A stretch of 64,000 bases of DNA from Candidatus Bathyarchaeota archaeon (GCA_963702095.1 OY969706.1:224001-288000); one strand, 5' to 3'; shown: positions 3,333 through 37,037, counted from the stretch's first letter. Numbers and translations are program-made. The notes: generated by a model not told the origin, from the sequence alone.

Positions 3333-4274
3333 ATGAAAAGTTGCGCTCCCCAATACGCCTTCAACAAAACAGAAATACGGTTGCTTAGGGAGCTCGCTAA
3401 AGGCAAGCAACCGCTCCTACAAATTAAAAGGCTTCTTCAAATAAAACCAGCATTTCTCTCCCGCAATTTGAAAAAGCTCCAGCAGAAGGGAATTATCCAA
3501 ATCGCTGCCGAAGGAAACCAAAAAACCGCATATTTTAGTGAAACTAAGCACGCTTCTCTTCTCAGGGACTTGTTGTTATCCTACGATTTTATGGAGTGGG
3601 AAAACATACTTAGTGGGAAATCAATTGAAATCCTTTTCCGAGCCCTCGATGATGGCGATTTATCAAGTTTTTCAGGCGCTACACTTTGGCGCTACCTCAA
3701 AGAACTTAAAGCAAGAGGCATAATCACAGAAACTCAGAAAGGATACATAATCAATACGCGCTTCGTGATCCTCGCAGATTTCCTAAAAGAATACGAGCGA
3801 TATTTTGTTAACAAGATTTCCAAGACTCTCTCTGAAAACTCTGTTATCCTTTGGCAAAAGGACATGGAATTTCTAGTCAGAGCACCCAAAGCTGTGAAGC
3901 CGCCGTCTGAAGACTTCCATAAAACCGCTACCTCAATCTTCGCTCAATATGATCTTCCGCTTTTCTCAGAATTTGACACCTACTTTTACTCAACAAACAA
4001 AAGAGCAATCAAACCTGAGGATGCTATACTGCATACGCTTGTTGTAGAACCGGGCAATGTGCGATACACAACTTACGCTCTTTTGCTGCTTAAAAAAACC
4101 GAAAAGGAAATCGACAAAACATATTTACTCAAGGAATCTGAAAGATTTAGGCTTAAAAATCAAGTTATCGGTATGCTTGAATTCTTAGAGACTCACACGC
4201 GCCCCGAAGGCCAACCACTACCATTTTGGAACGAATTTATCGCAAAAGCCAATGATTATAAGGTGACGGCGTAA
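3333..4274 (+). CDS. wHTH-containing putative antitoxin (AbiEi-like)
   Basis: N-terminal MarR-like wHTH (LSRNLKKLQQKGII), second HTH (TLWRYLKELKARGII); stop overlaps the start of the NTase gene (TAATG). Confidence 0.65.
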   Translation: MKSCAPQYAFNKTEIRLLRELAKGKQPLLQIKRLLQIKPAFLSRNLKKLQQKGIIQIAAEGNQKTAYFSETKHASLLRDLLLSYDFMEWENILSGKSIEILFRALDDGDLSSFSGATLWRYLKELKARGIITETQKGYIINTRFVILADFLKEYERYFVNKISKTLSENSVILWQKDMEFLVRAPKAVKPPSEDFHKTATSIFAQYDLPLFSEFDTYFYSTNKRAIKPEDAILHTLVVEPGNVRYTTYALLLLKKTEKEIDKTYLLKESERFRLKNQVIGMLEFLETHTRPEGQPLPFWNEFIAKANDYKVTA

Positions 4275-5116
4275 TGGCTCAAAGACGCTCCTTTGACAAG
4301 AACTATCTCAATCAAGAATTCGACAAACTAAACAAGACAACAAAACAGCCTCTTACACTTTATCTTATAGGCGGAGGCGCCATGGCATTCTACGGTCTGA
4401 AAGCTGCTACAAAAGACATAGACATAATCCTCACCGGCCAAGGCGACCTAAACATCCTGCAAACAACCCTAAAAGCCATAGGCTACATAGAGCCCAACCC
4501 AGTACACATTACTAGAGCTTACAATAAAATGCAAACTAACGCCATACTAGAAAACCAAGACGGTTTCAGATGGGACCTGTTTCTTAGCAAAGTCTGCAAT
4601 GCCCTGACTCTATCTGATGAAATGCAGAAAAGAGCAACCCTACTCTACCAAGGCAGCCGCCTAAAAGTTCTCATTGCTTCAAAAGAAGACCTCTTCCTCT
4701 TCAAAGGAATCACCGAGCGAGAAGCTGATCTGGATGATATACGAATTCTTGCCCAATCGGGACTCAACTGGGAAATCATAAGCCGAGAATGCAAAAGCCA
4801 ATCCGAAGCTTCAGGCGTTTGCTGGGAAGATGCACTCTACCAAAACCTCATCGACCTTAAAGCTAAATACGGCATCGAATCTCCAATCGAAAAACCCCTG
4901 CGGAAAGCTGCAGAACAAAAGATTATTGAAACAACGCTGATAAGGCAAATCCAAAAAGGAAACCACACCGTCAAAAGCATAGCAGAAGAAATCAAGGAGC
5001 CGCAGAATTTTATCAGAGAAGAACTGAAGCGATTAGTAAACAGAGGACTAATTACAACAGATAGATCAAACAAGCCCCATAAATTCTTCATTAGTGAAAA
5101 ACAGGGGCCAAAATAA
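4274..5116 (+). CDS. Nucleotidyltransferase toxin-like protein (AbiEii/DUF6036-like) with C-terminal wHTH
   Basis: LYLIGGGAM...TKDIDIIL Pol-beta-fold motif; K...R..D.DD motif (FKGITEREADLDD); C-terminal wHTH. Confidence 0.75.
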   Translation: MAQRRSFDKNYLNQEFDKLNKTTKQPLTLYLIGGGAMAFYGLKAATKDIDIILTGQGDLNILQTTLKAIGYIEPNPVHITRAYNKMQTNAILENQDGFRWDLFLSKVCNALTLSDEMQKRATLLYQGSRLKVLIASKEDLFLFKGITEREADLDDIRILAQSGLNWEIISRECKSQSEASGVCWEDALYQNLIDLKAKYGIESPIEKPLRKAAEQKIIETTLIRQIQKGNHTVKSIAEEIKEPQNFIREELKRLVNRGLITTDRSNKPHKFFISEKQGPK

Positions 5117-5184
5117 TGACAAGCAAATTATTAGCCTACTTGCGATAATAACGCTTTAATGCCAATTCAGGGAGAATACGAACA

Positions 5185-5424
5185 ATGAACCTTACAAAAA
5201 GAGAACGCGCCATTCTTCAACTTGCAAAGCAAGGATTAAGCGATTATAAGATAGCACGCAAACTCAAGACAGACCCACCAAGCGTAACCCGCTCACGCAA
5301 GAATGCACACAGAAAACTCGCCAATGCCATAACAGACATTGAATGGGCATCAAAAATAGCGGTTCGCGTTTCAGAATTAGACATAATACCGCGTTGCATA
5401 ACTAATTTCAGTTATTTTTTATAA
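5185..5424 (+). CDS. LuxR/sigma-like HTH protein
   Basis: LTKRERAILQLAKQGLSDYKIARKL signature. Confidence 0.7.
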   Translation: MNLTKRERAILQLAKQGLSDYKIARKLKTDPPSVTRSRKNAHRKLANAITDIEWASKIAVRVSELDIIPRCITNFSYFL

Positions 5425-5566
5425 TCTTCATTTTTTAGGTTTAAAAGGAAAAATAATGCCCAATGTTTTTAAAATAAATGACATTATACTCAGATCACTA
5501 CCAGATAGTTCTTTAAATAGGCAAAATTTATCTATCAATTAAGCTTATACAAGCACTAAGCTGACG

Positions 5567-7501
5567 GTGACAACTTTGCTTCTATTGTCTGCTCAAATTG
5601 AGAACTTTAAATCAATTGACAGCTCTAACGAATTTTCTGTCAAACCAGTAACTTGTCTTGTAGGAAAAAACGAAGCGGGAAAAACTACCATACTTCAAGC
5701 ATTGTACAAATTAAACCCGGATATTCCCGAAAAAGGTAACTTTGATGGATTGTTTGATTATCCTAGACGAAAGTGGTCATCGTATAAAGAGCGCAAAGAA
5801 GCTCAGCCAGATAATGTGTTAACAACAAAATGGGAATGTCAACCTTCCGACATTAAAGAATTGGAAGAAAAATTTGGACAAAACATACTAAAAAATAACA
5901 TTGTAACGATAACCAAAGGGTATGATAACCAACTGAAATTTCAGGTTGACATTGATGAAAAACAAGTCCTATTAAATTGGGCTAAAGGAAAGTCTTTTTC
6001 AGAAGACGAAACAGCAGAAGTGAGCAAATATACAACTTTTTCTGGCCTCGCTGCTCTAAAGGAAGCAAACCCTACAGAAATTCAAAAGAAAATTCTAAAT
6101 AATTTAGATACAGATTTTCCTAAAGGTCCACAAACTGCCCTTCTGGAGCTATTAAGGAAACGCTTGCCTGTTTTCCTTTTCTTCTCAGATTTCTCTCGAA
6201 TGGCTGGCAAAGTTTCTTTAAATGACCTCCAATCAAGAAAGAATCAAAATCGTATGGAGCAACCTTACAGAATTTTTGAAGCATTATTAAATCTCGCAGG
6301 AACTACAACAGACCAAATGAACGGCATTCAGAATTCTGAAGCTCTCATAGCTGAATTAGAAGCCATTTCCAATCGACTAACTTCAGAAATCTTTGAATAT
6401 TGGAGTCAAAACAAGAACTTGCAAATTGAATTTCGATTCGAGTGCGGCAGACCCCAAGACCCTGCGCCGTATAACAATGGCTATGTTTTTCACACAAGAA
6501 TATTGAATACCCGACATGGGGTAACTGTAGGTTTCGACGAACGTAGTCAAGGTTTTGTTTGGTTTTTTTCATTTCTTGTCTGGTTTTCCCAACTGAAAAG
6601 AGTTTACGGAGACAACCTGTTTATACTCTTAGATGATCCAGGATTAAGTCTACATGCTCGAGCACAAGCAGATTTATTACGATACATTAAGGAGAAGTTA
6701 CAACCACACTATCAAGTTATCTATACAACGCATTCACCTTTTATGATTGACCCAGAAAATTTACAAAACGTTAGAACCGTAGAAGATGATTTAAAATCCA
6801 AAAAAATTCTGGGAACAAAGGTAAGCGAAAAAGTTCTAGGCACAGACCCTGATACCCTTTTTCCTTTACAAGCAGCGATTGGATATGATATAGCGCAGAC
6901 ACTGTTCATAGGTAAAAATACTCTGTTGGTCGAAGGGCCTTCAGACCTACTCTACCTTAAGCTCTTTTCAAAAGAACTGGAAAGCGCTGGAAGAACACAT
7001 TTAGACTCCAAATGGGCCATAACGCCTTGTGGTGGTGTAGAAAAAATCGCGAGTTTTATGGCTCTGTTTAAGGGCAACAATCTCAATGTCGCAGTACTAA
7101 CAGACTTACATAAAGGCATTAAAACAAGAATTAGAAGCCTTCAGGAGTCCGAAATTCTCAAAGCAGGGCACATTTTTACCGCTGATATGTATGCAGGAAA
7201 AGAAGAAGCCGATATTGAGGACATAATTGGGCGGTCCAACTATATTAAAATAGTAAACGATTGCTACACACTCGATAAAACTCATCAAATGCCTGAAGAG
7301 AACAAACTCGATTCCTCGAAAACAGTACTTGAAGAAGTGGAAACCTACTTGAAAGCAAACGTTCCGGATTTAGAATTTAATCATTATACGCCTGCAATGT
7401 TTCTAACCGAGAATAGAAAAGAACTAAAAACACTACCACAAATAAGCGAAGCTCTGGACCGTTTTGAAAAACTATTCAAAAGCCTAAATGCTTTATTTTA
7501 A
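5567..7501 (+). CDS. OLD-family ABC ATPase + TOPRIM nuclease
   Basis: IENFKSI; Walker A GKNEAGKT; Walker B LLDDPG; H-loop TTHSPFMI; TOPRIM VEGPSD; DIED. Confidence 0.85.
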   Translation: MTTLLLLSAQIENFKSIDSSNEFSVKPVTCLVGKNEAGKTTILQALYKLNPDIPEKGNFDGLFDYPRRKWSSYKERKEAQPDNVLTTKWECQPSDIKELEEKFGQNILKNNIVTITKGYDNQLKFQVDIDEKQVLLNWAKGKSFSEDETAEVSKYTTFSGLAALKEANPTEIQKKILNNLDTDFPKGPQTALLELLRKRLPVFLFFSDFSRMAGKVSLNDLQSRKNQNRMEQPYRIFEALLNLAGTTTDQMNGIQNSEALIAELEAISNRLTSEIFEYWSQNKNLQIEFRFECGRPQDPAPYNNGYVFHTRILNTRHGVTVGFDERSQGFVWFFSFLVWFSQLKRVYGDNLFILLDDPGLSLHARAQADLLRYIKEKLQPHYQVIYTTHSPFMIDPENLQNVRTVEDDLKSKKILGTKVSEKVLGTDPDTLFPLQAAIGYDIAQTLFIGKNTLLVEGPSDLLYLKLFSKELESAGRTHLDSKWAITPCGGVEKIASFMALFKGNNLNVAVLTDLHKGIKTRIRSLQESEILKAGHIFTADMYAGKEEADIEDIIGRSNYIKIVNDCYTLDKTHQMPEENKLDSSKTVLEEVETYLKANVPDLEFNHYTPAMFLTENRKELKTLPQISEALDRFEKLFKSLNALF

Positions 7502-16971: not shown

Positions 16972-17183
16972 GCTTGAGACCCGATGAAGTTTGAAATCGA
17001 TAAAACGAGTGTTGTTTTTCAGTAAAGTTAGTCTTGCGTTTCCTTTAAACCTAACGTTCTCTCGCAACTTATAGCCTTCCATTTTAGTGCTTACACGAAC
17101 CCATCGCAATCAAACAATCCCACGTTTCTTTATATGACGCTTTTCTTTTTTTGAATATTTTAAACAAAAAAATAGATTATGGT

Positions 17184-17342
17184 TTATTTCCACAGCTTTT
17201 TTCCAGTCAGCAGCCAAATGACTACAAAGATTACGGCAATCACGAGCAGTATATGTATCAATGCGCCTACGCCTGGCAAAGCAAAGAACCCAATCAGCCA
17301 AAGTATCACAACAATGATTGCAATCGTCAACCAGGTATTCAT
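17184..17342 (-). CDS. Small membrane protein, lmo0937/DUF5670-like
   Basis: Hand translation MNTWLTIAIIVVILWLIGFFALPGVGALIHILLVIAVIFVVIWLLTGKKLWK. Confidence 0.8.
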   Translation of the reverse strand: MNTWLTIAIIVVILWLIGFFALPGVGALIHILLVIAVIFVVIWLLTGKKLWK

Positions 17343-17356
17343 AGCAAACGCTCCAA

Positions 17357-17647
17357 CTAAGCCTCAACTACTGGTCTTAGGTACATGTGAAGCTGATCTT
17401 TTGATACTTTTAAGTGTAGACCCTTCTCTGTCCAGCGTGCAACCCCTTTTTCTAAGGCTGAAACGGCTAACATGTTTCGTACTCCACCTTTCTTTGCGCC
17501 AAGTACTGATTCAGCTATGCTCTTTTCTAATTCAATTTCAAGATGAGTAATCTTCCACTCTTCAGGATCAATTTCTATTTCTTTTACTTTGCCGATTTTC
17601 TCGTCTAACGCAAAAACATCTTTATCCATAAATTCTTTACTTTTCAT
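17357..17647 (-). CDS. PRC-barrel protein
   Basis: KDVFALDEKIGKVKEIEIDPEEWKITHL pattern. Confidence 0.85.
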   Translation of the reverse strand: MKSKEFMDKDVFALDEKIGKVKEIEIDPEEWKITHLEIELEKSIAESVLGAKKGGVRNMLAVSALEKGVARWTEKGLHLKVSKDQLHMYLRPVVEA

Positions 17648-17719
17648 ACTATTTACCCCTCCTCGGTATACCCCTGATTTGAGATGTCATAAACATGGTC
17701 ATTGGCAGAGTTAAGCGCT

Positions 17720-17743
17720 TGTGACTGCGAGCCCACACCGACA
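17720..17743 (-). promoter_or_regulatory. Palindromic regulator site 1
   Basis: Sense strand TGTCGGTG-N8-CAGTCACA, 5 nt before TTAA, upstream of the PRC-barrel gene. Confidence 0.7.
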
Positions 17744-18049
17744 GACTGACCGTTGAGCCTTAGAAAGAATTTGAAACTTGAAAACAAATAAAAAATGAAT
17801 TCTCAGGTTAGTCTTCAGCTTTTTCAATCAGGCTCAAAAACTTGTTGTCAGAGGTTGGTTTTTCTCATAAAACGCTTCAATCTTCATCTCAAAAGATTGC
17901 CAAGTGATGATGTTTTAATTTGGGAGAAAACTGCTTCTAAACAGCTCGGAAGGCTATTTCGACTAATATCGTGTTCCCCGGGATGTGGACCAAAAAGCGC
18001 ACGGCTGCACACAGTTCTGGCTAAATAAAAAAAGAAAGAAAAGTTAGGT

Positions 18050-19045
18050 TTAGGTTACTGCAGTGGTTTGATCGATTATTTTTGCTTGTGGAGCATTCGT
18101 CTTTACTGATGCTATGCCATTTTCAGCTGACTGTTTGGATAGGTAGGATTGGCTTACAGCAATTATCTGTCCAGTAGCAGCTTTCAAACGGAAACGATAT
18201 CTATCAGGTGCATTGCATTGAATTTCAAAAACCGGGGATTCAACAATTTCAACGTGGTGAACGGGTATAGTTCCACCTGTTGTGTAATCAGTGGTCTTAG
18301 CTATTGGAGCATTCTTTTTTATTGAAGCAATACCTTTTAGAGCATTCTCTCTTGTCCCGTACGAGTGGCTTACAGCAATTATCTGTCCGTTAGCAGCTTT
18401 CAGATGGAAACGGAATCTACCGGCAATATCACATATAACCTCAAAGACACCTGTCACTTTCGCTACTACCGGAATCGGTTCAGTTATCACTTCAGTGGGC
18501 GGCAATGGTTCCTCAACTGGTAAGATGGGTTCTGGGATTTTATCAGTTGCGTGACCCTTCTGTGTATGAGCATTCATTTCGTAAGTAGTCATGAAGCCCA
18601 ATCCGCATATAGGACATGTTAGATCCATATTTGGCATAAGTACGCCATTCAAAACGTGTATTATGCCGTTGTCTGTTACAATGTCTGTGTTTATCATGTG
18701 TGCATCATTGATTAACGGGTTATAGTGAGAAGTCCACCAGTGGGCGGCGTCAATTTTAACCTCTTGGCCTTGGAAAGTTTTCATGTTTTTCATTTGACCT
18801 ATTTCGTCTACTGTGAACTTTCCTACTACAATATGGTACATCAGAATCGCCTTGAGCTTTGGAATATTTTTCAATAGTCCCTCGACTGTACCTGCAGGAA
18901 GCTTTGCAAAAGCATCATCATTTGGCGCAAAAATTGTAAACGGTCCTTTGCGTTTCAATGTTTCAACTAATCCGGCCGCTTGGACTGCGGCTACAAATGT
19001 TGTGAAGCCCCCGGCTTCAACAGCAATATCAAATATATCTGCCAT
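18050..19045 (-). CDS. Fasciclin (FAS1) + C2H2 finger + two DUF1508/YegP domains
   Basis: TIFAPNDDAF, YHIV, NGIIHV; CPIC..H....H; two FRF.LKAA.GQIIAVS.SY repeats. Confidence 0.85.
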   Translation of the reverse strand: MADIFDIAVEAGGFTTFVAAVQAAGLVETLKRKGPFTIFAPNDDAFAKLPAGTVEGLLKNIPKLKAILMYHIVVGKFTVDEIGQMKNMKTFQGQEVKIDAAHWWTSHYNPLINDAHMINTDIVTDNGIIHVLNGVLMPNMDLTCPICGLGFMTTYEMNAHTQKGHATDKIPEPILPVEEPLPPTEVITEPIPVVAKVTGVFEVICDIAGRFRFHLKAANGQIIAVSHSYGTRENALKGIASIKKNAPIAKTTDYTTGGTIPVHHVEIVESPVFEIQCNAPDRYRFRLKAATGQIIAVSQSYLSKQSAENGIASVKTNAPQAKIIDQTTAVT

Positions 19046-19117
19046 TTATTTTCATCTCTTCAAAACAGTTTTCAAGTTTTATCTGAGTTGTAATGGTGTT
19101 CTTATAATAAATAACTG

Positions 19118-19141
19118 TGTGACTGGGGAGCCCCAGCAACG
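19118..19141 (-). promoter_or_regulatory. Palindromic regulator site 2
   Basis: Sense CGTTGCTG-N8-CAGTCACA directly before TTATTTATTAT, upstream of the FAS1 gene. Confidence 0.75.
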
Positions 19142-19207
19142 GGATGGCAAGCTACACGTAAAAGGGCTAATCGATTTGAAGCGACCGGAGAAATTAGATT
19201 TCTCGGG

Positions 19208-19993
19208 TTAGCTTTCAGCTTTTTGCCAGTCAGACTCAAAACTTGTTCTAAGCACACCAATAAGGTTGCGGTTGTTTGTCCACAAAGAAGGGCTTTCGCC
19301 TAATCCGCTTTCTTTGGAGGTGGTAATCAATGCTTCTTTATCATCAGACATTATGAAGTGATTTAAGGCTTCACGATGAAACCTGATTTGAACCGAAGCG
19401 ACACCAATGAATTTTTTCACTTGTTCTATTAGCAAACCATCTGGGCTTTCTCCTTCAAAAAGTAGTCGAACCTGAGTACCTTCCTTTATTGCCAGTCTGT
19501 ATTCATCTGAAAACTGAGCCAAAATGGGCATGATTCTCGTCTTGTCTGCAATCAAAGCGACTTCTTTTCGTGAGTTATTAATCAGACCTGAGGTCTTTGT
19601 TAAAATTGATTTCTTTTCCGCTATCAGTATGTAGATGCTTTCTTCTCCAAGAGACTGTTGCTTCCACTCTTTGAGGGATAGTTTCTGGACCCTGCTCCTC
19701 ATATCCGTCAACCGTTCCTCGGCTCTGTTTTTTTCTTTCGCCAGTAGTAAAGCCAAGGAATCAGAAATAAGAGTAGCCCGGACCTCAGTTGGTTTACCCA
19801 GCAATCTTTCAACCAAACCCATTTTTTCGAGTGCTGGCAGAAGCCTATAGACGTCTTCCCTGCGCACTTTTGAAAATTTTGCTACTTGTCCTACCGTGGT
19901 TTTTTCCAGTTTAAGTATTGCTAAGTAAACCTTTGCCTGATTAAGAGTCAACCCCAAACCAAGCAGGAGTTCCGTGTTTTCGTCGTTAGCCAT
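19208..19993 (-). CDS. TrmB-family transcriptional regulator
   Basis: LGLTLNQAKVYLAIL...REDVYRLL..LEKMGLV; C-terminal PLD-like effector domain ending FESDW. Confidence 0.9.
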   Translation of the reverse strand: MANDENTELLLGLGLTLNQAKVYLAILKLEKTTVGQVAKFSKVRREDVYRLLPALEKMGLVERLLGKPTEVRATLISDSLALLLAKEKNRAEERLTDMRSRVQKLSLKEWKQQSLGEESIYILIAEKKSILTKTSGLINNSRKEVALIADKTRIMPILAQFSDEYRLAIKEGTQVRLLFEGESPDGLLIEQVKKFIGVASVQIRFHREALNHFIMSDDKEALITTSKESGLGESPSLWTNNRNLIGVLRTSFESDWQKAES

Positions 19994-20348
19994 TCCCGAC
20001 TTCCTATTATTTTTTTGTCTAAATTTATATTTATTTTTTTCGGTTGCTTGCTCCTTCAACTGTTAATTCGCATCAACAATTATGAATCCTCATCTACAAT
20101 GTTAAAATGACTCGCAGGTACTCACAGGACTAAACTGCAATAGGTTTGCATACGATAGTCCGTAATCAGGTTGGATGTTTGAATTAAAAAGAATCACCTA
20201 CAAACACCAAACTCTAAAAAAGTACTTCCAAAGAAAAGGAGTATAGCCGATTGGGATGCAACTAATCTTTTTTTAACTACTGAGGTATTGTTAAGGTTCG
20301 TTTCCTTGCCATTCTTGAGGAAATTAGCAAGAAAATTTTTTTCATTTT

Positions 20349-22097
20349 TTAGATTGCTTTTTTGGCGGTGAAATCCTTTTTATATTTATCCATTTTATCC
20401 TTGAAGACTTTTTTATCAGTATCTTTTTGTTCTTCGAAATCGCTCTTGTCGCTGTCAGTTTTTTCCCTAAAGTCTTTTTTGTCACTGCCTTTCTGTTCAT
20501 TGTAGTCGCTTTCGTTATTATCGCGCACTGTCTCGAAGTCTTTTTTGTCGCTATAGGTTTTTGCCTTAAAATCTTTCCTGTGAATATCCCTTTGGGCCAT
20601 CCGTTTACTTTTGTCGTTGCCAGTTTTGTCCTCAAAATCTTTTTTGTCTATGTCTTTTTGTTGGTTGTACTCTTTTTGGTTATTATCGCGCAGTTTCTCA
20701 AAATCCTTCCTTTGACCGTCGATTCTTTCTTCAAAATCTTTTCTGTCGCTATCTCTTTTTTCCTTGTAGTCGTTTTCGTTATTGCTGCTTAGTTCCTCAA
20801 AGTCCCTTTTGTCACATTCAGTTTTTTGTTTAAAATCTTTTCTATGAATATCCCTTTGCGCTAGCCATTTACTTTTGTCCTCACCTGTTTTATCCTCAAA
20901 ATCCTTCTGGTTGCTGTCTTTTTGAGTTTTGTATTCATTTTCGTTATTGTCGTTTTGTTCTTTGAAGTTCTTTTTGTCGATATCAGTTTTTTCCTTAAAA
21001 TCACTTTGATTACTGTCAATTTGTTCTTTGAAAACTTTTTTATCTCTTTTATTTTTCTCTTTAAGTGCTTTATTCAACAGCTTTTCAGCAGCAGTTCCTA
21101 ATCCATACATTTCAAAAAAGATGAATGATAAAACGAATACAAACCAAAAACTCGCAAACCCCCATAGTAGACTTGAAGCTTGCGCCATGGAGATATTTAT
21201 GCCGAGAACTTGATAGATGCCACTGGAAACTATTTGTGAGAAACCTGTTAATGCTATGCCTTGATTGCTTATAGTGCTAACTATGGTATTTGTGATTATA
21301 ATTTTGTCAAAGCCTATGAAGGAGCCAAGGGAAATGAAAACAAGGTACAAAGCTGCAATACTGCAAATCCAAGTCATGGTTTGAAAAATCATGGGTTTTA
21401 CCATACTTTTTGGTTTTTCCTTTATAATCATTACTACATCATGAAAATTAGCTATTTGAACAACAATCTTTTCTCCAAATTCGACATCAGTTTTTTTGTG
21501 CTTTATTTTAGCAATTACTTGAACAAGAAATTGAAGAAGCTTTTTAGTTACTGAAATATTTGTGCTCAAATAAACTATCAAAATGAGCGGCAGCGCAAAA
21601 AACGCCATAGTTACTCCAATAGCAACTAAAACGAAAGTGTCAATTGAATAATTCAATATTAACAGAAACATTCCCACTATCAAGGCCAAAAGAGTGACTA
21701 AAAGCTCAAGAATATCTTTGACTATTACTGAAGCCGCTACTTTAACTACATCAACACCTTCATCTCCGCCCAAAAGATAAGTCATGAAGATATCCCCCGA
21801 CCAACCCCCAATTATAAGGCAATCAAGAAAAGCGCCAACCCAACCCAGACAAAAAACCCTCTTAAACGTAGTTTTAACAGCAACATTATCAAGAGTAGCT
21901 TTCCAAGCCAATGAATTGAACGCTGCTTGACCTATAACAAGCAAAAAAACCAAGGCGTAAACTGGAATACTTACACCGCTAATTATTATTGCAACTTTTG
22001 TAAGATCTGTAAAGAAAAAAAGGTAGACAACAAAAATTATAAAACCTACTATGGCAAGTAGGCTTACCCATTTCTTAATTTCTGGTCTATTTGACAA
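20349..22097 (-). CDS. UPF0104/LPG-synthase-TM flippase-like protein with a C-terminal 11-residue repeat tail
   Basis: Multi-TM N-terminus (W...L, GGWSGD); about 21 hendecads D.D.KDF.E.. Confidence 0.75.
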   Translation of the reverse strand: MSNRPEIKKWVSLLAIVGFIIFVVYLFFFTDLTKVAIIISGVSIPVYALVFLLVIGQAAFNSLAWKATLDNVAVKTTFKRVFCLGWVGAFLDCLIIGGWSGDIFMTYLLGGDEGVDVVKVAASVIVKDILELLVTLLALIVGMFLLILNYSIDTFVLVAIGVTMAFFALPLILIVYLSTNISVTKKLLQFLVQVIAKIKHKKTDVEFGEKIVVQIANFHDVVMIIKEKPKSMVKPMIFQTMTWICSIAALYLVFISLGSFIGFDKIIITNTIVSTISNQGIALTGFSQIVSSGIYQVLGINISMAQASSLLWGFASFWFVFVLSFIFFEMYGLGTAAEKLLNKALKEKNKRDKKVFKEQIDSNQSDFKEKTDIDKKNFKEQNDNNENEYKTQKDSNQKDFEDKTGEDKSKWLAQRDIHRKDFKQKTECDKRDFEELSSNNENDYKEKRDSDRKDFEERIDGQRKDFEKLRDNNQKEYNQQKDIDKKDFEDKTGNDKSKRMAQRDIHRKDFKAKTYSDKKDFETVRDNNESDYNEQKGSDKKDFREKTDSDKSDFEEQKDTDKKVFKDKMDKYKKDFTAKKAI

Positions 22098-22233
22098 TAT
22101 TTACTCAATACCTGTTGTCTGCCTAGTGTTTCACGCATTTCAGTACCTATTCAGTGTTAATTGTGAAGTGGGGGTCAAATCCTTAGCTCGTGTGCGCTAT
22201 CTTGCGTTATTACTGTCAAACTTACATTTGCTG

Positions 22234-22434
22234 TTATGCTTTCTTTGGTTTTATGCTAAGTTTAACGTTAATCTCAATGGTGTATTCTTTGTCCGTGTTT
22301 CCAACAGCGAAGTTCCAGTTCTTCACCTCTACGTCCATATCCTTAAAATGATTCATTAAAGAATTCTTATATTCACTAACGGTCTGGCCCATATTCTGCA
22401 ACCGTTCAGTTATGTCTATATTTTTTTCAGTCAT
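22234..22434 (-). CDS. Small hypothetical protein
   Basis: 66 aa; GAGG ribosome-binding site; motif-bearing promoter. Confidence 0.65.
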   Translation of the reverse strand: MTEKNIDITERLQNMGQTVSEYKNSLMNHFKDMDVEVKNWNFAVGNTDKEYTIEINVKLSIKPKKA

Positions 22435-22497
22435 TCAAATACGCCTCTAAAACTCCAATTTATACAACCGTTAACCTGCACATTGCTCTTAAGGCTA

Positions 22498-22521
22498 TGT
22501 CGCTGGGAACTAACACCTACA
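22498..22521 (-). promoter_or_regulatory. Palindromic regulator site 3
   Basis: Sense TGTAGGTG-N8-CAGCGACA, 5 nt before TTAAG. Confidence 0.75.
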
Positions 22522-22752
22522 AGTAAATTACAAATTCCGGTACATGAAAATTTTCTGTGAGATTACACTTTCTATCCCAGATCAACGCATGAGAATTTTC
22601 TTTGCAAAAGAAAAGTTACAGGACCATTTTTGAATCGTATCTGAAAAAGGTTCAAGACTGACTCAAAGAGCCTCAATGACCCTGCCTAAGGTGTGTTTTG
22701 AGCATATTTAGAGGGATATAACTTTTTAGCGGTGAAATGGATGTGGCAGGGC

Positions 22753-22776
22753 TGTAGCTGTTAGTTACCAGTCACA
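22753..22776 (+). promoter_or_regulatory. Palindromic regulator site 4
   Basis: TGTAGCTG-N8-CAGTCACA, 4 nt before TTAAAA. Confidence 0.75.
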
Positions 22777-22819
22777 CACCTTAAAATTTCAAAGCATCTC
22801 CTTTGAAGCAGGAAAATAG

Positions 22820-23179
22820 ATGTCTGTAAAATTTTCACTAAGTGAAATAATCGCTGCAATCCTAAATGAAATCAAAGAGGCACTCAAAGAATACGCCAAT
22901 CAAGCGGAAGTCGCCTTCAAAAAACGCATCAAAAAACTCTTAATAATAAGCATAGTCGGCGCCGTCTTGATGTCGCTGGGAATCTCACTCGCTGGGTCAG
23001 CAGCCCTGTTCATCCTCATTGGCTCACTAAGATACCTAGAAACCTCTATGCCCGCATGGCAAGCCTGGCTCATCATGGGAACCACCTCCGCCATCGCAGC
23101 AGCAGCACTATTCACAGTGCTCTTTCTAACAATAAGAAAACAGTTATCCTCACCCAAAGTGCCGCCTGAACAAAAATAA
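22820..23179 (+). CDS. Two-TM holin-like/YqjE-like membrane protein
   Basis: Amphipathic N-terminus, two TM helices with PAWQAWLI loop. Confidence 0.6.
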   Translation: MSVKFSLSEIIAAILNEIKEALKEYANQAEVAFKKRIKKLLIISIVGAVLMSLGISLAGSAALFILIGSLRYLETSMPAWQAWLIMGTTSAIAAAALFTVLFLTIRKQLSSPKVPPEQK

Positions 23180-23378
23180 GGCGCCTACTCTTTTTATTGA
23201 CATTTTCTGAGTCCAATCAGCATTTTGAATTTTTGCCTCTTTATTTCTTGGTGATGAGAAAAACAATGAATTCATGCATAATTTCTACGAAAAGCGAAAA
23301 CAGTCGATTAGTTTGAGGGGTAAAGGAACTATAAATACCCATTGATATAAAAATAATTGAAGTCCAGATTGAAAATCT

Positions 23379-23402
23379 TGTAGCTGTAGGGCCCCATTCA
23401 CA
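23379..23402 (+). promoter_or_regulatory. Palindromic regulator site 5 (orphan)
   Basis: TGTAGCTG-N8-CATTCACA before TTATTTAT; no long ORF downstream. Confidence 0.6.
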
Positions 23403-23729
23403 AAGTTATTTATCCAAAATTAAGCATTAGGTGGAATTGCTTTGGCGGATCAGCGTTAAACAAGATGCGAATGGTTTGTAACCCCTGTTCCTTCTCGAAT
23501 GTTCGCGTTCTGATGGCGTGTGTAGGTCCGCCAAAAATATTCTAAGTCACTTGCGGTTTATCAAGAGACTTATTTGCGCAATCCAAGTTTTGCCGATCTT
23601 AGCAACTGTTATTTCTGAAAAAAAAGCTTAAACAAAAAAGGACAAAGAAAGCAAGTTAAGATTTCGCCGCTTGTAAATTGATTAGCCGTACCACAACCTT
23701 TCGCAAACAGATAAAAAAGATGGGCGTTG

Positions 23730-24099
23730 TTATCTTGCCAGCAAACCGCCTATGAATCCGCCGATCGTTGACGCGATCGCTCCAAAGATAGCAAGGATAA
23801 TCGCTATTACTCCAACTGCCAGCCCAGCCAAGCCGCCGAAAAGCGCCGCCCATAATCCCGCCGGAGACTCCTCCAATAACTGCGAGACCGACGACTGCGA
23901 GGAGGGTAATTATGATACCGCCGAATATGCCTGCGAGGAAACCAGCTAATGCGCCTGTCAATATGCCGCCGCGTGCTATGATGCCTGCTACAAATCCGCC
24001 TATTAACCCACCTATCAAATGTCCAATGCCCGGAAACAGCCAACCAAGAACTAATGTTATGAGGAAACCAACTAAAGCTCCAAGCCACAAACTTCCCAT
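23730..24099 (-). CDS. Gly-rich membrane protein (DUF5518-like), one frameshift
   Basis: GG..GGF.AG repeats; removing one T near 23840 restores ...IGGFIGGLLAR. Confidence 0.7.
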
Positions 24100-24181
24100 A
24101 AAATCACCACCTTTTTTCCAATCAGAAAATTTTTGTCCATAAAACAACATACAACATTACAATTGCGTTTGAATGCTAAGT

Positions 24182-24508
24182 TTATGAGAATATGAAGCCT
24201 ATGATTACACCTGCTATGAGTCCAATGCCTAGCGGTAGCATGCCTATGAGAAGTACCCCGTATTGAACTACTATGGAACCATATGTGTCTGATAGGCCTT
24301 TCAACGCCCCAAGACTCAAACCGAAAAAGCCGAAGTAGCTAACTACCAAGAGTATAATCGCAGCAATAATAGCAATCTTTAGCATTTTGTGGGCTAGATA
24401 GCCGACGACTAAGCCAAGAATGAATGGAATAATCATTAACACAATTGGCGGCAAACCGCCTATGCTCCCGGAAGTAATAAACTGAATTACTTCATCTATC
24501 GCGCCCAA
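24182..24508 (-). CDS. FUN14-like membrane protein
   Basis: G..VGY..HKMLKIA...; C-terminal G.G..AG...G. Confidence 0.6.
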   Translation of the reverse strand: MGAIDEVIQFITSGSIGGLPPIVLMIIPFILGLVVGYLAHKMLKIAIIAAIILLVVSYFGFFGLSLGALKGLSDTYGSIVVQYGVLLIGMLPLGIGLIAGVIIGFIFS

Positions 24509-24560
24509 AATCTACAACTCCACAGTTAAGCCATAGTAGTATAAATGGCTATTAAGCCTG

Positions 24561-24584
24561 TGTAGCTGGGGCTCCCCAGCAACA
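24561..24584 (-). promoter_or_regulatory. Palindromic regulator site 6
   Basis: Sense TGTTGCTG-N8-CAGCTACA, 5 nt before TTAATA. Confidence 0.75.
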
Positions 24585-24663
24585 GAGCGGTGTGCTGTTT
24601 GGGGAATTCAGGGGCGTAGCGATTTAGACTAAAACTCAGCTTATTCTCTTCAGGGAAAAGTTT

Positions 24664-24837
24664 TTAGCGTTTTCTTTGTTGTCTCTGTTTTTTACCAGTA
24701 GACCATTTGCCCGTTTGGGATTCTCCTAGTTTGCGGGGCTCTTTTTTGTTCTCGTGTGAGTATCTTGGCGGTTGCTTTTTTATATGGGGTGTTTGCGGGG
24801 TTGTTTCTTGCTTTTCTGCATTTTCTTTCTCATTCAT
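24664..24837 (-). CDS. Small basic hydrophilic protein
   Basis: Hand translation, 57 aa, MNEKENAEKQ...KQRQQRKR; overlaps the upstream gene end. Confidence 0.45.
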   Translation of the reverse strand: MNEKENAEKQETTPQTPHIKKQPPRYSHENKKEPRKLGESQTGKWSTGKKQRQQRKR

Positions 24838-25147
24838 GCTCTTTTACCTCAGCTCTGTCTTCGCTGTAATCTCTATCCTCATGGGCTTCTTCTTCCACTT
24901 CATCCTGCAACGCTTCTTCACGTCCGCTTGCTTCTTCACCTTCAACGCTTGCCCTGTCTTCAGCCTGACCTTTCGGCGGATACACCTTATCCAACCAAAC
25001 CTCAAACTGTACCTTATATTCAGAGCTCGAAAAGGCCCAATCGCATAATCCACCAATGACTTTACTAACGTCAATATCGTGATCGTCAGCTAACGCTTTT
25101 AGAAAATTCGCCCAATTTACAGGTAAAGGAACTGAAGAACTACTCAT
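24830..25147 (-). CDS. Hypothetical protein with acidic tail
   Basis: RHH-like N-terminus and Glu-rich C-terminus. Confidence 0.55.
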   Translation of the reverse strand: MSSSSVPLPVNWANFLKALADDHDIDVSKVIGGLCDWAFSSSEYKVQFEVWLDKVYPPKGQAEDRASVEGEEASGREEALQDEVEEEAHEDRDYSEDRAEVKEHE

Positions 25148-25447
25148 AAATAGAATCTCCAGTAACCTTATTACTGTTAAGGAATATTTAAGCTTCTTAA
25201 GCACTTGAAAATAGAGTCAACCGAGAAAAATCGACCTAATTGCTAAACGAGTTTAAATCTCCGTGTGGCAATATATAGGCTGTAAGTCAGCGGTTTTGGA
25301 ACAGCAAAATGATAGCCCCCAATCTCTTACTGATCAAATCTATCTTATTCGGCATGACTCCAAAACATGAGCGATCCCCCAAAATTTCGTAGAAAAGCTG
25401 ACTAAGTTAAAAAAATCATTAATGAATAATACCGAGGAAAAAATAAC

Positions 25448-27088
25448 ATGGCATATTTAACACAAACCCAAAGTGGTCAACCTGTACTCATCTTGAAAGA
25501 AGGAACCACACGAAGTAGAGGCAAAGAAGCCCAACGAAACAACATTATGGCAGCCCGAGTAATCGGTGAAGTTCTCAAAACTACATTGGGACCACGTGGC
25601 ATGGATAAAATGCTCATCGACAGCCTTGGAGACATCACTATAACCAACGATGGTGCCACAATTCTCAAGGAAATGGATGTGGAGCATCCAGCAGCAAAAA
25701 TGATGATTGAAATCGCCAAAACCCAAGACGACATGGTCGGCGACGGAACCACAACCGTTGTAGTGCTAGCCAGCGAACTTCTCAAAAAAGCCGAAGATCT
25801 CCTAGACCAGAACGTCCACCCCATGATACTCGTTGCAGGATACCGCAAGGCAGCACAGAAAGCAATCGAAATCATAGCGAAAAATGCGGTGGCCATTGAC
25901 GTTGAGGATCAAAAGATGATGATGAAAGTCGCTTTAACATCCATGGGAAGCAAAGCGGTGGGTGGTGCTAAAGAGCACTTTGCAGAAATAGCAATAGAAG
26001 CTATAAAACAGGTAGCTCAGAAGCAAGGTGATAAGACGATAGCTGATATAGATAACATACAACTGGTGAAGAAGACGGGAAAAAGCCTCATCGAGACGCA
26101 ACTCGTCAGAGGCATAATCGTAGATAAAGAAGTCGTCAATCCAGGAATGCCCAAAAAGATAGAGAACGCGAAAATCGCACTTTTAGATATTGCACTAGAG
26201 ATTGAAAAAACCGAAATAACCGCGGAAATACGCATCCATGAGCCAAACCAGATGAAAGCGTTTCTAGACCAAGAGGATAGTACACTCAAAGAGATGGTAA
26301 CAAAGATCAAAGCTTCAGGCGCAAACATTGTGTTCTGCCAGAAAGGTATCGACGATATGGTTCAGCACTTCCTATCCAAAGAAGGCATCATAGCAGCACG
26401 CAGAGTCAAAGAATCCGACATGGAAAAGCTCGCGAGAGCCACAGGCGGACGAGTAAACTCCAACTTGAATGATTTAAAGGCGGCAGACTTGGGTTTTGCC
26501 GGCTTAGTGGAGGAACGCAAAATCGGCGATGACAAAATGATTTTCGTCGAGAAATGCAAAGACCCCCATTCAGTGGCCATCCTCATTCGAGCAGGGCTTG
26601 AAAGAATGGTGGATGAAGCTGAAAGAGTAATAACCGACGCGTTGTCAGTAATTTCAGATGTCACGGAAAACAATAAAATCGTCGCTGGCGGGGGGGCAAT
26701 CGAAATCGAAATCGCCAAAGGACTCCGCAAATACGCAACCAAAGTCGGCGGAAGACAACAACTCGCAGTAGAGGCATTCGCAGATGCAGTTGAAGTTATC
26801 CCACGCACGCTCGCAGAGAACGGAGGCTTAGAACCAATCGACATACTCATAGAGCTACGTCAAATACACGACAAAGAAGACGGCAAATACATCGGCATCA
26901 ACGTCTTCACAGGCAAACTCCAAAACAGCATCGAAAACGGCGTCATAGAACCAGTTGTTGTCAAAGAGCAAGCTATCAAATCCGCAGCCGAATCCGCAGC
27001 CATGATACTGCGCGTAGACGATATTATAACTGCCAAATCCCCAAAGGGTGGACCAGGTGGAATGCCTGGCGGCATGGGAGAAGAATAA
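25448..27088 (+). CDS. ths: Thermosome (group II chaperonin) subunit
   Basis: TLGPRGMDKM, ITNDGATIL, GDGTTT, GGM tail. Confidence 0.97.
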   Translation: MAYLTQTQSGQPVLILKEGTTRSRGKEAQRNNIMAARVIGEVLKTTLGPRGMDKMLIDSLGDITITNDGATILKEMDVEHPAAKMMIEIAKTQDDMVGDGTTTVVVLASELLKKAEDLLDQNVHPMILVAGYRKAAQKAIEIIAKNAVAIDVEDQKMMMKVALTSMGSKAVGGAKEHFAEIAIEAIKQVAQKQGDKTIADIDNIQLVKKTGKSLIETQLVRGIIVDKEVVNPGMPKKIENAKIALLDIALEIEKTEITAEIRIHEPNQMKAFLDQEDSTLKEMVTKIKASGANIVFCQKGIDDMVQHFLSKEGIIAARRVKESDMEKLARATGGRVNSNLNDLKAADLGFAGLVEERKIGDDKMIFVEKCKDPHSVAILIRAGLERMVDEAERVITDALSVISDVTENNKIVAGGGAIEIEIAKGLRKYATKVGGRQQLAVEAFADAVEVIPRTLAENGGLEPIDILIELRQIHDKEDGKYIGINVFTGKLQNSIENGVIEPVVVKEQAIKSAAESAAMILRVDDIITAKSPKGGPGGMPGGMGEE

Positions 27089-27126
27089 ATGTCTCCCTTT
27101 ACGATAACGCTGAGAAGGGATTAATC

Positions 27127-27351
27127 ATGCCAAAATGTCCAAATTGTACAGCGCACACGCAAAGGCCTGATAAGGAATGGGACTTTGGGCGATTCCGTGT
27201 CAAGTTATATAAGTGTCAAAAATGTGGAAATCAATTTAGAGAATTTTTCATGGAAAATACGCTGAAATTTGTGTTGAGCGCACACAACGGTGGTTTAGGA
27301 AAAATCAGAGCTACAAAAGAAACGCTGGACAGACAAAAAACCTACCAATAA
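27127..27351 (+). CDS. Zn-ribbon protein
   Basis: CPNC...KEW....VKLYKCQKCG. Confidence 0.65.
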   Translation: MPKCPNCTAHTQRPDKEWDFGRFRVKLYKCQKCGNQFREFFMENTLKFVLSAHNGGLGKIRATKETLDRQKTYQ

Positions 27352-27436
27352 CCGTTTTTTAGGTACAACAGAGAAATGATTTCTTAAAATATTGCAAGAA
27401 ATATAGTGAGTGAGCATAAAAAGCTCACTTTACCAA

Positions 27437-28015
27437 CTATTTCACTACCACTTTATGCTTTTTAGGTGCGGGTGCAATCATCTTCTTTGGAACGCAGACC
27501 TCAAGTAATCCGTCCTTAAATGTGGATTCAGCTTTCTCAGGGATTACTTCTTCGGGGAACGACAGTTGTTTGTAAACATGCGAGTAAACGCGTTCTCGGA
27601 CAACAAAGGTCTTCTCCTTGTCTTCTGTTTCAACGTCTGTTTCAGCCGAGATTTCAATACCATCGTTCGTTAGGGCTACATCAATCTTGTCTTTTGCTAC
27701 GCCTGGCAATTCAGCATGCAAAACAAACCTGTTTTCTTCATCAACCAGATCAACAGTTGCCTCACGAACCGGAACTTCAGGTTCAAGACTCACCCAATCC
27801 CAAGGAAAAGCTATGCTTTCAATGAAGTTTTTGCGAAAATCACTGTACAATTCATCAAAAGTTGTCAGAACATGAACTGCGGGAACAGTCTTTGCAGGAA
27901 CATGTTTCGCCGGAAGATGTTTAGCAGGGATAATTTTTACAGGTTTTACTGTTACTTCAGCTTTCTTTATCGCCTTCAACGGCGTATTCTTTTCTTCTTT
28001 ACTCATTTTTTTCAC
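27437..28015 (-). CDS. hsp20: Small heat-shock protein (Hsp20)
   Basis: AELPGV.K..I, RERVY, A...FKDGLLEV.VPK; N-terminal PAK(H/T)xP pentapeptide repeats. Confidence 0.92.
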   Translation of the reverse strand: MKKMSKEEKNTPLKAIKKAEVTVKPVKIIPAKHLPAKHVPAKTVPAVHVLTTFDELYSDFRKNFIESIAFPWDWVSLEPEVPVREATVDLVDEENRFVLHAELPGVAKDKIDVALTNDGIEISAETDVETEDKEKTFVVRERVYSHVYKQLSFPEEVIPEKAESTFKDGLLEVCVPKKMIAPAPKKHKVVVK

Positions 28016-29492: not shown

Positions 29493-30443
29493 ATGACTCT
29501 AATTCAAGAAGTTCCAAAAACACCTCAACGCTTAGTTGAGAAGTGCCCTGAATGTGCCGGCAAAAATCTTGTCCACGACTATGATACCGGCGAAACCATC
29601 TGCGGCGACTGCGGCCTCGTTTTATATGAGCAGATGTTCGATAAAGGCCCCGAGTGGCGAGCGTTTACCCAGCAAGAGAAAGCCTCACGAAGCCGAGTTG
29701 GTATGCCAACATCTTATTCAGTTCACGATAAAGGATTATCCACAACTATCAGTCAAATTGACAGAGATGCCTTTGGAAGAAAGCTTCCTCTTTCCACGAG
29801 GTTGCAGATGTGGCGCCTTAGGAAGTGGCAAATACGAAGCCGTGTGCACTCCTCTGTTGACCGCAACCTAGCACAAGCTATGGCTGAACTTGACCGTTTA
29901 TCGGGCAAAGTAAATGCTTCGCCGCCAATCAAAGAACAAGCCGCACTTGTTTACAGAAGAGCACTCGATAGAGGCTTAGTCCGTGGAAGATCCATATCTG
30001 GCGTTGCTGCTGCCTCGTTATATGCTGCTTGCCGCAAAAGTGGGTTACCCCGATCCCTTAGGGAAATCGCTGAGGCAAGTCTGGTGAATAGGAAAGATGT
30101 TGCACGCTGCTACCGTTTGCTGTTGCAGGAGCTTGATTTTCATATGCCAATTTCTGACCCTTTGACATACGTTTCGAAGATCGCTGAGAAAAATGGTATT
30201 TCAGGCAAAACACAGGGCGCTGCCATAGCGATACTTAGGGAAGCAAGAAAACAGCGGGTTGCGTCAGGAAAAGATCCAATGGGCATGGCGGCGGCTTCAC
30301 TCTACATAGCTTGTCTGCAGAATAATGAAAAGATAACGCAGAAAGACATTGCAGAAGCAGCCGGAGTCACTGAGGTTACGGTTAGAAACAGATACAAGGC
30401 GCTAAAGAAGCAGCTAAAACTTGAACTACCTGAAAAAGCCTGA
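29493..30443 (+). CDS. tfb: Transcription initiation factor IIB
   Basis: CPEC..GETICGDCG Zn ribbon; PEWRAF; two cyclin repeats; GVTEVTVRNRYK. Confidence 0.97.
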   Translation: MTLIQEVPKTPQRLVEKCPECAGKNLVHDYDTGETICGDCGLVLYEQMFDKGPEWRAFTQQEKASRSRVGMPTSYSVHDKGLSTTISQIDRDAFGRKLPLSTRLQMWRLRKWQIRSRVHSSVDRNLAQAMAELDRLSGKVNASPPIKEQAALVYRRALDRGLVRGRSISGVAAASLYAACRKSGLPRSLREIAEASLVNRKDVARCYRLLLQELDFHMPISDPLTYVSKIAEKNGISGKTQGAAIAILREARKQRVASGKDPMGMAAASLYIACLQNNEKITQKDIAEAAGVTEVTVRNRYKALKKQLKLELPEKA

Positions 30444-36669: not shown

Positions 36670-37037
36670 GAGGCTTCTTATTATTTTTCCTTTGTCGCTT
36701 TTCTTAATTACCCTCCAAGGGTTATTTTATAATGTAAACAAATGTAAAGCGACTCCCCTGACTCCCTAAAATAATTAAAGTAAAATGAAAAGGGGTTTGC
36801 AGATGGCCTCTCTTGGCCAACAAAGGGTCGACTCCTACCTGTCCATAAAACATAGAATGAGTTTATTGCTTCTGGATTATAGGTTATCTACGTTATGCCT
36901 CTTTTTGGAATAGCGCACTAATAATCAACCATTCTATCGGTACTACTCTAATAAAGAAACAAAAAGAATGGAGAGGCGTGTCGCTACTTTTCAGCAGCGA
37001 CCTCTTTGGATTTCATGTTTATCTCTCTCGAAGAATT

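Follow-up and report, generated by a model that had tools for sequence, protein, structure and literature searches.

What do six near-identical palindromes, clustered within 6.9 kb and each set directly before a TATA-like box, control in an archaeon, and which protein reads them? The question arises from a 64,000-nt stretch of Candidatus Bathyarchaeota DNA (GCA_963702095.1 OY969706.1:224001-288000; hereafter the window), taken from a single 2.94-Mb contig of the genome that we call G000. Bathyarchaeia abound in soils, peat, and sediments. To our knowledge almost nothing is known of their gene regulation because the lineage has no cultured member; no publication on a Bathyarchaeia regulon or promoter motif was found in the open-access full-text literature. 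A first-pass annotation of the window had proposed a general-stress regulon of these six promoters, driven most likely by an embedded TrmB-family protein, possibly together with a nearby TFB. Our analysis places the palindrome on roughly 75 to 90 promoters of G000, and the window is a dense island of this larger class.

Searching both strands of the window with TGTNGCTG-N8-CAGYNACA, allowing up to 2 mismatches, returned 14 strand-matches at 7 places, compared with 0.72 expected from 100 shuffles. The match at 36979 is weak; the other six are the sites of the first-pass annotation, recovered where it had placed them, with a spacer of always 8 nt and 0 to 2 mismatches to the written pattern. Site 1 (17720 to 17743, minus strand; position weight matrix [PWM] score, 20.2) is followed after 5 nt by TTAACTC and by a start codon 72 nt downstream, and site 2 (19118 to 19141, minus) is followed after 3 nt by TTATTTATTATAAG and by an ATG 72 nt downstream. 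Site 3 (22498 to 22521, minus) precedes TTAAGAG by 5 nt and an ATG by 63 nt; site 4 (22753 to 22776, plus), an exact match, precedes TTAAAATT by 4 nt and an ATG by 43 nt. Site 5 (23379 to 23402, plus) stands 3 nt before TTATTTATC, both site and TATA box being kept in the relative G013, and site 6 (24561 to 24584, minus), again exact, stands 5 nt before TTAATAGCC and 52 nt before a TTG. The gap to a TTAA/TTAT box on the gene-facing strand is therefore 5, 3, 5, 4, 3, and 5 nt for sites 1 to 6, close to the TTAA/TTTA abutment that had been described. Five sites aim into an open reading frame (ORF) on the correct strand with its start codon 43 to 72 nt past the site, as had also been claimed; the exception is site 5.

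At the scale of the genome, the palindromic pattern TGTNRCTG-N8-CAGYNACA has 6 exact and 23 one-mismatch occurrences, compared with 0 and 2.8 in a null of five third-order Markov genomes. Among spacers of 4 to 12 nt, lengths other than 8 yield only 1 to 5 sites, and 28 of the 29 sites with at most one mismatch are intergenic by crude gene calls that mark 79% of the genome as coding. A separate palindromic repeat whose flanks are conserved, present in ∼45 copies (e.g., G000:C1:506527, 1299887, and 2459365), looks like a miniature inverted-repeat transposable element or an insertion sequence end and had contaminated the first PWM; with the matrix rebuilt after its removal, 90 sites score at least 16 bits, versus 14 in a shuffled genome. 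A TATA-like box lies 2 to 6 nt downstream on the oriented side of 75 of these 90 sites, versus 1 of the 14 null sites. Across 71 promoters the gap measures 2 nt in 7 cases, 3 nt in 12, 4 nt in 24, 5 nt in 25, and 6 nt in 3, so that 49 gaps are 4 or 5 nt and the spacing to TATA is fixed rather than scattered. Start codons fall mostly 43 to 75 nt past the site, which is consistent with the peak of TATA-like words at about −50 to −40 from the start codon of ordinary genes (Shine-Dalgarno words, −12 to −8). The regulon claim thus stands as far as an operator locked beside TATA and placed before stress-type genes is concerned, but it describes ∼80 promoters genome-wide and not six local ones. The accompanying claim that these promoters lack a purine-rich TFB recognition element (BRE) is not supported: the frequency of A at −6 to −3 is 0.48 to 0.56, above the 0.33 to 0.46 of 610 ordinary promoters chosen by TATA match, and G is depleted.

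Conservation was followed through 19 genomes of the genus (G000 included), 12 genomes from other families of the order, and 151 genomes of the family representing 70 genera; the close relatives are Candidatus Bathyarchaeia/Bathyarchaeota metagenome-assembled genomes from peat and soil. In the genus, 16 of the 19 genomes hold 13 to 38 sites with at most one mismatch (controls, 0 to 2), and the remaining three (G006, G011, and G018) hold 0 to 1. The genomes of the other families have 0 to 3 sites each. Within the family, 29 of the 151 genomes, mostly larger ones, carry at least 5 sites and 120 carry 3 or fewer, with contrasts even within a genus (29 sites in G106 versus 0 in G040). The FAS1-YegP gene behind site 2 has orthologues with a site 75 to 130 nt upstream at 11 of 15 full-length loci, the spacer bases differing, and none of 17 loci of bacterial homologues has one. 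The strongest sites of G001, G016, and G017 precede the same families as in G000, common targets being DUF5670, PRC, fasciclin, KGG, YqjE-like, ABC ATPase, a TFS paralogue, and small RAM-domain and C2H2-type proteins. The motif is thus conserved both in related genomes and upstream of orthologues, and it is the same across motif-rich genomes despite their differing regulator candidates.

Only a protein-binding operator agrees at once with the conserved 8-nt arms, the free 8-nt spacer, the position outside the transcript, and the fixed TATA phase. For its reader we favor, at a probability of roughly 45%, a TrmB-family regulator that activates most targets. A dimer would bind the 24-bp palindrome 3 to 5 nt upstream of the TATA-like box and would help TBP and TFB onto weak core promoters, switching the stress-protection genes on. 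The predicted binders are the TrmB proteins with the recognition helix K[VI]RRE[DE]VYRx[LI]PxL[EQ]KMGL (here T1, T2, and T3) wherever these are present; elsewhere a second factor would read the same site, for which another TrmB protein, T5, is the best candidate and the likely stand-in. In that case the embedded TrmB protein, T1, would have an accessory role as a regulator carried by the island, and the master would be another protein.

T1 (261 aa; 19208 to 19993, minus strand) was assigned by Pfam, structure match, and recognition helix. Its N-terminal winged helix scores 53 bits with PF01978 (cutoff, 25.6), its C-terminal Regulator_TrmB part scores 20.4 bits with PF11495, under the cutoff of 22.2, and the protein aligns over its full length (residues 3 to 260) to TrmBL2 (5BPD; E = 4.9e-6). 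As read from the sequence, its promoter has its own A-rich BRE/TATA and no palindrome upstream. G000 encodes 18 TrmB-like genes; T1 shares its helix with T2 and with T3 (found in G140 and G162), the other 15 paralogues of G000 differ from it at the variable positions, and no paralogue other than T1 and T2 lies near a site. At 65% identity or more, T1 occurs in 11 of the 151 family genomes, each with 4 to 34 sites, and in none of the 120 with 3 or fewer. Of 11 T1 loci scanned, which came from nine genomes other than G000 and G013, nine have a site about 115 nt beyond the T1 stop codon, which is the PRC-barrel promoter, and this T1-site-PRC-barrel synteny extends over at least 7 genera.

T2 (G000:2175816-2177228), a 470-aa TrmB-MEDS protein, is the closest paralogue of T1 in G000 and has orthologues in 8 of the 151 family genomes. 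Only two of the genomes with 3 or fewer sites have it: G032, and G070 (67% complete), both of whose sites flank T2; in G048, 3 of 6 sites flank the gene. With ORFs as read, the palindrome lies 10 to 30 nt before the T2 start in G050, G088, G070, G048, and G053 and, weakly, in G032, and a TATA-like box lies 4 nt beyond the far edge of the site. The site is thereby of the upstream type for the divergent gene and sits between TATA and start codon for T2, which is the geometry expected of autorepression. G030, which belongs to a different family of the order, has a single site in its genome, 25 nt before a T2-like gene and again with the TATA box on the far side. In at least 12 genera, the subgroup of T1, T2, and T3 has a physical link to the palindrome, and to this extent the suggestion that a TrmB protein of the embedded kind is the regulator is partly supported. 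Gene distribution speaks against T1 itself as the required regulator: true orthologues are present in 3 of the 15 other motif-bearing genus genomes (G002, G003, and G013; G009, 56% complete, was not counted) and in the 11 family genomes named above, G016 having a 217-aa relative of 44% identity. It is therefore probably not an indispensable regulator.

T5 (561 aa; G000:1505929-1507611, outside the window) carries TrmB, Regulator_TrmB, and CBS domains by Pfam. An orthologue is present in all 16 motif-bearing genus genomes and was not found in G006 or G018; the G014 copy contains an internal TAA, and in G009 only part of the ORF is present. At G011:C3:33514-35177 (L328, L330), T5 is split by an in-frame TAG; this genome has 1 site, 1.2 Mb of sequence, and 58% completeness. 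In the family, T5 occurs in 16 of the 151 genomes, all with 8 to 34 sites, and in 15 of the 17 genomes with at least 10 sites, the exceptions G050 and G053 having T2. Motif-poor members of genera g1, g22, and g41 (G110, G178, G040, G116, and G142) have no T5. In G147, a homologue of 44% identity stands directly upstream of the genome's only site and of S, a small orphan protein gene treated below. T5 is the best phyletic fit among the candidates, and a gene private to the same clades would fit alike.

Several findings weigh against a TrmB-family activator. In G012, with 24 sites, the T1 gene is in pieces. Searches with the first 90 residues of T1 (its N-terminal domain) found no T-type TrmB in G017, G161, G051, G077, or G124 (14 to 27 sites; best identity, 29 to 46%) nor in G001, G010, G005, or G014 (best identity, 44 to 48%). 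The TrmB hits in these nine motif-rich genomes carry other helix types, and G017, 97% complete, gave a single TrmB-family hit in all. Since the sites are kept where T-type proteins are absent, another reader must exist in those genomes. The genomes of genus g59 and G161 have a HAD-site-S-Zn-ribbon locus that lacks T2 but otherwise corresponds to the HAD-T2-site-S-Zn-ribbon locus in G050 and G088, and the site in it is still strong (25 to 27.5 bits). The site beside T2 doubles as the promoter of S, a gene with a site at 13 of its 20 loci, so the link between T2 and the palindrome could be second-hand. As for T5, the palindrome lies within 1.5 kb of the gene at 0 of 17 loci, the recognition helix is unlike that of T1, T2, and T3 at the variable positions, and the T5 promoter has a conserved dyad of its own (TTGTAG...CTACAA type) that differs from the palindrome. 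Lastly, protein binding and activation are both things that we infer, activation from position only, and the proximal half-site ends where the BRE would sit, which makes repression possible too.

Some of these findings would also be explained by a stably inherited factor outside the TrmB family that reads the palindrome everywhere, with the T-type proteins, S, and H, an Sso10a-like protein, among its high-priority targets. None of T1, T2, T3, H, and S occurs in every motif-rich genome, while the motif stays the same. In G001 and G010 (29 sites each) both T-type TrmB proteins and H are lacking, in G017 both T-type TrmB proteins and S are, and sites persist at the S locus without T2. But such a factor has no candidate, and it would have to exist in G030, G070, and G147 while controlling little beyond a locus of a T2- or T5-like gene and S. 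We regard it as possible, if well short of probable. A local iterative hidden Markov model search for winged-helix factors stayed within TrmB (18) and HTH_45-like (17) proteins.

Two further genes, H and S, were each considered for the role of reader. H (G000:C1:1186592-1186945; L031:162-515) is an Sso10a-like HTH_45 protein (PF14947; Sso10a, E = 8.3e-7) with a site upstream at 19 of 20 orthologue loci (9 of 9 in the genus and 10 of 11 in the family) from several genera. As an autoregulated master it was rejected: it occurs in 9 of the 16 motif-bearing genus genomes (G000 included), being absent from G001, G002, G010, G012, G013, and G016, and in 12 of the 151 family genomes. We take H as a member of the regulon, a regulated transcription factor or chromatin protein.

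S (G000:C1:2177431-2177667; L047:191-457; 20 loci in L266 to L285) is an orphan protein of 60 to 125 aa with the core FQ[VL]L.L.ND...VEV.E.E.IDF..V.EHL..G.SVFIT and often a WYFTHI-like end. Among the 13 loci with a site upstream are that of G147, which has no other site, and those of G083 and G137, genomes with few sites; the S2 orthologues of G001, G010, and G013 likewise have one. S often adjoins T2, T3, or, in G147, the T5-like gene. Searches of S returned no Pfam family and no Foldseek match in the PDB at E ≤ 0.001, and S was not found in G017. Its AlphaFold model (pLDDT, 70.6) has a beta-beta-alpha-beta core and a C-terminal helix, the conserved core being acidic. With no family or fold match, an acidic core, and no copy found in G017, S was rejected as a DNA binder; it may be a partner of the sensors.

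Repression was weighed next to activation by a TrmB-family protein. Here the bound dimer would cover the BRE region and keep the stress genes off until a signal arrives, and the proximal half-site, 3 to 5 nt from TATA, does lie where TFB contacts the BRE; at T2 genes the site falls between the TATA box and the start codon, and TrmB is described as repressing by steric hindrance at BRE/TATA (PMC4706686). The predominant 4- to 5-nt gap and the one-sided orientation, however, are predicted by contact with TBP/TFB and not needed for occlusion, and most of the site lies upstream of the BRE, from where TrmBL1 activates. We consider a repressor operator a tentative alternative, on a par with a reader from outside the TrmB family.

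Less probable still, and in our judgment unlikely, is T5 as the master regulator of all sites, sensing energy or adenosyl-ligand status through its CBS pair. Its occurrence in every motif-bearing genus genome and in motif-bearing family genomes only, its absence from motif-poor genus-mates, and the homologue upstream of the only site of G147 would favor this. Against it stand the palindrome-free T5 loci with their other dyad, the differing helix, the six motif-rich genomes that have no T5 (G050, G053, G048, G109, G097, and G089), and the similar pattern that any clade-specific gene gives. The T5 dyad lies about 40 to 90 nt upstream of the start codon (L313 to L328), abutting TATA or about 20 nt upstream of it, and is possibly T5's own operator.

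A local regulon of six promoters run by T1 and the neighboring TFB is very improbable. The T1 gene does lie among the six sites, with the PRC-barrel synteny and the helix common to T2 in its favor; but the motif is genome-wide, T1 is absent from most motif-bearing genomes, and the TFB is not specific. G000 encodes five TFBs, of which four (window 29493 to 30440; G000:C1:577935, 2106746, and 2921527) are 79 to 84% identical to each other and one is divergent (47%). The window copy is no closer to any relative's copy than to the other G000 copies. Main-type copy number ranges from 1 to 4 across the genus, with a single copy in eight motif-bearing genomes (G003, G004, G005, G007, G008, G009, G015, and G017), and motif-less G006 and G018 also hold the type. 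The proposed role of the nearby TFB is accordingly not supported. That the palindromes are mobile-element ends or recombination sites can practically be dismissed, for although the genome does hold a separate ∼45-copy repeat, only the 16 specified bases are conserved here, spacer and flanks vary, the distances to TATA and start codons are fixed, and sites stay upstream of orthologues.

The genes behind the sites may make up a stress-type program. Outside the window, 28 of the 76 first ORFs match Pfam (E ≤ 0.001) and 48 match no family. Stress-type targets comprise KGG (GsiB-type), Hsp20, fasciclin, short-chain dehydrogenase, and 3-methyladenine glycosylase, with an LEA_2 match at 24.7 bits, below the Pfam cutoff of 25.4. 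Enzymes include cytochrome b5, F420-type oxidoreductase, MGH1-like hydrolase, DUF3131, GT1 glycosyltransferase, PPDK, and peptidase A4; transport is represented by two P-type ATPases and ABC parts, and transcription or RNA functions are represented by a TFS-like zinc ribbon, Rpr2, a C2H2 finger, and two HTH_45 proteins. Taken together, these targets resemble those of a general stress regulon in bacteria. The TFS/TFIIS-type zinc-ribbon paralogue is a conserved target (G000:C1:1467156-1469319, L042:314-661; G017, L188), which brings to mind stress-induced TFS paralogues acting on RNA polymerase.

In the window, site 1 faces a 96-aa PRC-barrel protein (17357 to 17647, minus; PF05239, 21.9 bits, cutoff 21.2) followed by a 52-aa DUF5670 small membrane protein (17184 to 17342, minus; PF18919, 37.8 bits). 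Site 2 faces a 331-aa protein with a Fasciclin and two DUF1508 (YegP-type) domains by Pfam (18050 to 19045, minus). Behind site 3 come a 66-aa ORF without a Pfam family (22234 to 22434, minus) and then a 582-aa LPG_synthase_TM (UPF0104-type) membrane protein whose C-terminal part is repetitive (20349 to 22097, minus; PF03706, 81 bits). Site 4 faces a 119-aa membrane protein (22820 to 23179, plus) with a weak holin-X/YqjE-like match in Pfam (Phage_holin_3_6, 23.7 bits, below the cutoff of 28.4), whose G001 orthologue is likewise behind sites. Site 6 faces a 108-aa ORF (24182 to 24508, minus) and, second, a DUF5518 membrane protein (23656 to 24150, minus; PF17647, 37.9 bits). The target families named by the first-pass annotation are thus confirmed by Pfam for the PRC barrel, lmo0937-like/DUF5670, Fasciclin-YegP, UPF0104-type, and DUF5518 proteins, but the YqjE-like match is subthreshold and the "FUN14-like" 108-aa ORF has no Pfam match at E ≤ 0.01.

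Site 5 has no credible ORF behind it, and the only small ORF there has ACG in place of its ATG in G013. A stretch of the G013 island matches the site, its TATA box, and the following 150 nt or so at 74 to 78% identity. A hairpin of about 95 nt (23441 to 23535, plus strand; −33.4 kcal/mol, z = −3.0), closed by UUUGGCGGAUC and GGUCCGCCAAA, is a candidate structured small RNA: of its 30 pairs, 7 are kept by one-sided changes and 0 are compensatory between the two sequences compared. No Rfam family was found in 17000 to 25400 at E ≤ 0.1. Site 5 is thus a candidate promoter of a small RNA of the stress regulon.

Two further features of the window lie apart from the regulon. A thermosome and an Hsp20 gene (25448 to 28006) adjoin the island, and the window pattern search gave no palindrome at either; they would belong to a different control circuit. 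At 3333 to 7498, an HVO_2833_C/HTH protein, a DUF6036 nucleotidyltransferase with a weak TrmB-type helix-turn-helix, and an AAA_15 plus OLD-like TOPRIM protein are grouped, possibly as a defence or mobile island.

An easily recognized promoter element on ∼80 genes offers a sequence-only handle on the stress physiology of these archaea and gives dozens of orphan small proteins a shared context. New here are the tests of how T1, T2, T5, H, S, and TFB are distributed across the family, the helix shared by T1, T2, and T3, the T2 autoregulation geometry, and the small-RNA candidate behind site 5. With a 24-bp site, a 4- to 5-nt spacing, and few candidate TrmB proteins, the system suits in vitro work on a factor with TBP and TFB, and it may show how a private autoregulatory TrmB operator can become a global regulon.

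Among known systems, the closest in layout is the TrmBL1/Tgr regulon of the Thermococcales glycolytic motif (TGM), in which a TrmB-family factor has a palindrome at ∼30 to 70 places of the genome, activates from sites upstream of BRE/TATA, represses from downstream ones, and can act in both ways at a single divergent promoter, an arrangement like that of the T2 genes here (PMC4706686). The TrmBL1 operator is TATCAC-N5-GTGATA and the TGM targets belong to sugar metabolism, whereas the 24-bp site here is TGTnRCTG-N8-CAGYnACA, its targets are small stress-type proteins, its TATA spacing is rigid, and the candidate TrmB proteins carry MEDS, CBS, or TrmBL2-like C-terminal parts. EarA of Methanococcus maripaludis also has a site directly upstream of weak BRE/TATA elements and is needed for transcription (PMC5512572). 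EarA and its counterparts Ptr2 and TFB-RF1 serve one or a few operons, compared with ∼80 promoters with one phased site here, and the factor families differ or are predicted only. Ptr2 and TFB-RF1 are archaeal activators that likewise have a site directly upstream of weak BRE/TATA and are needed for transcription. Sso10a is described as a chromatin protein; H matches it (PDB 1R7J and 4HW0) but is a paralogue specific to its lineage, and the palindrome precedes it. In content, the nearest likeness is to the bacterial general stress regulons of SigB, RpoS, and EcfG/PhyR-NepR, through KGG/GsiB-type, Hsp20, PRC-barrel, YegP/DUF1508, short-chain dehydrogenase, LEA-like, and small membrane proteins, and control of S by the same site as the regulon recalls the feedback of anti-sigma factors. 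By analogy, and with considerable doubt, one might picture in peat and soil Bathyarchaeia a general stress response built from a phased site, a promoter class of ∼80 genes that includes a small RNA, interchangeable one-component TrmB sensors differing in their C-terminal parts (CBS, MEDS, or TrmBL2 type), and feedback through S, which would always be under the site and often be encoded next to the sensor. In bacteria the class is set by an alternative sigma factor, whereas here it is set by a palindromic site beside TATA.

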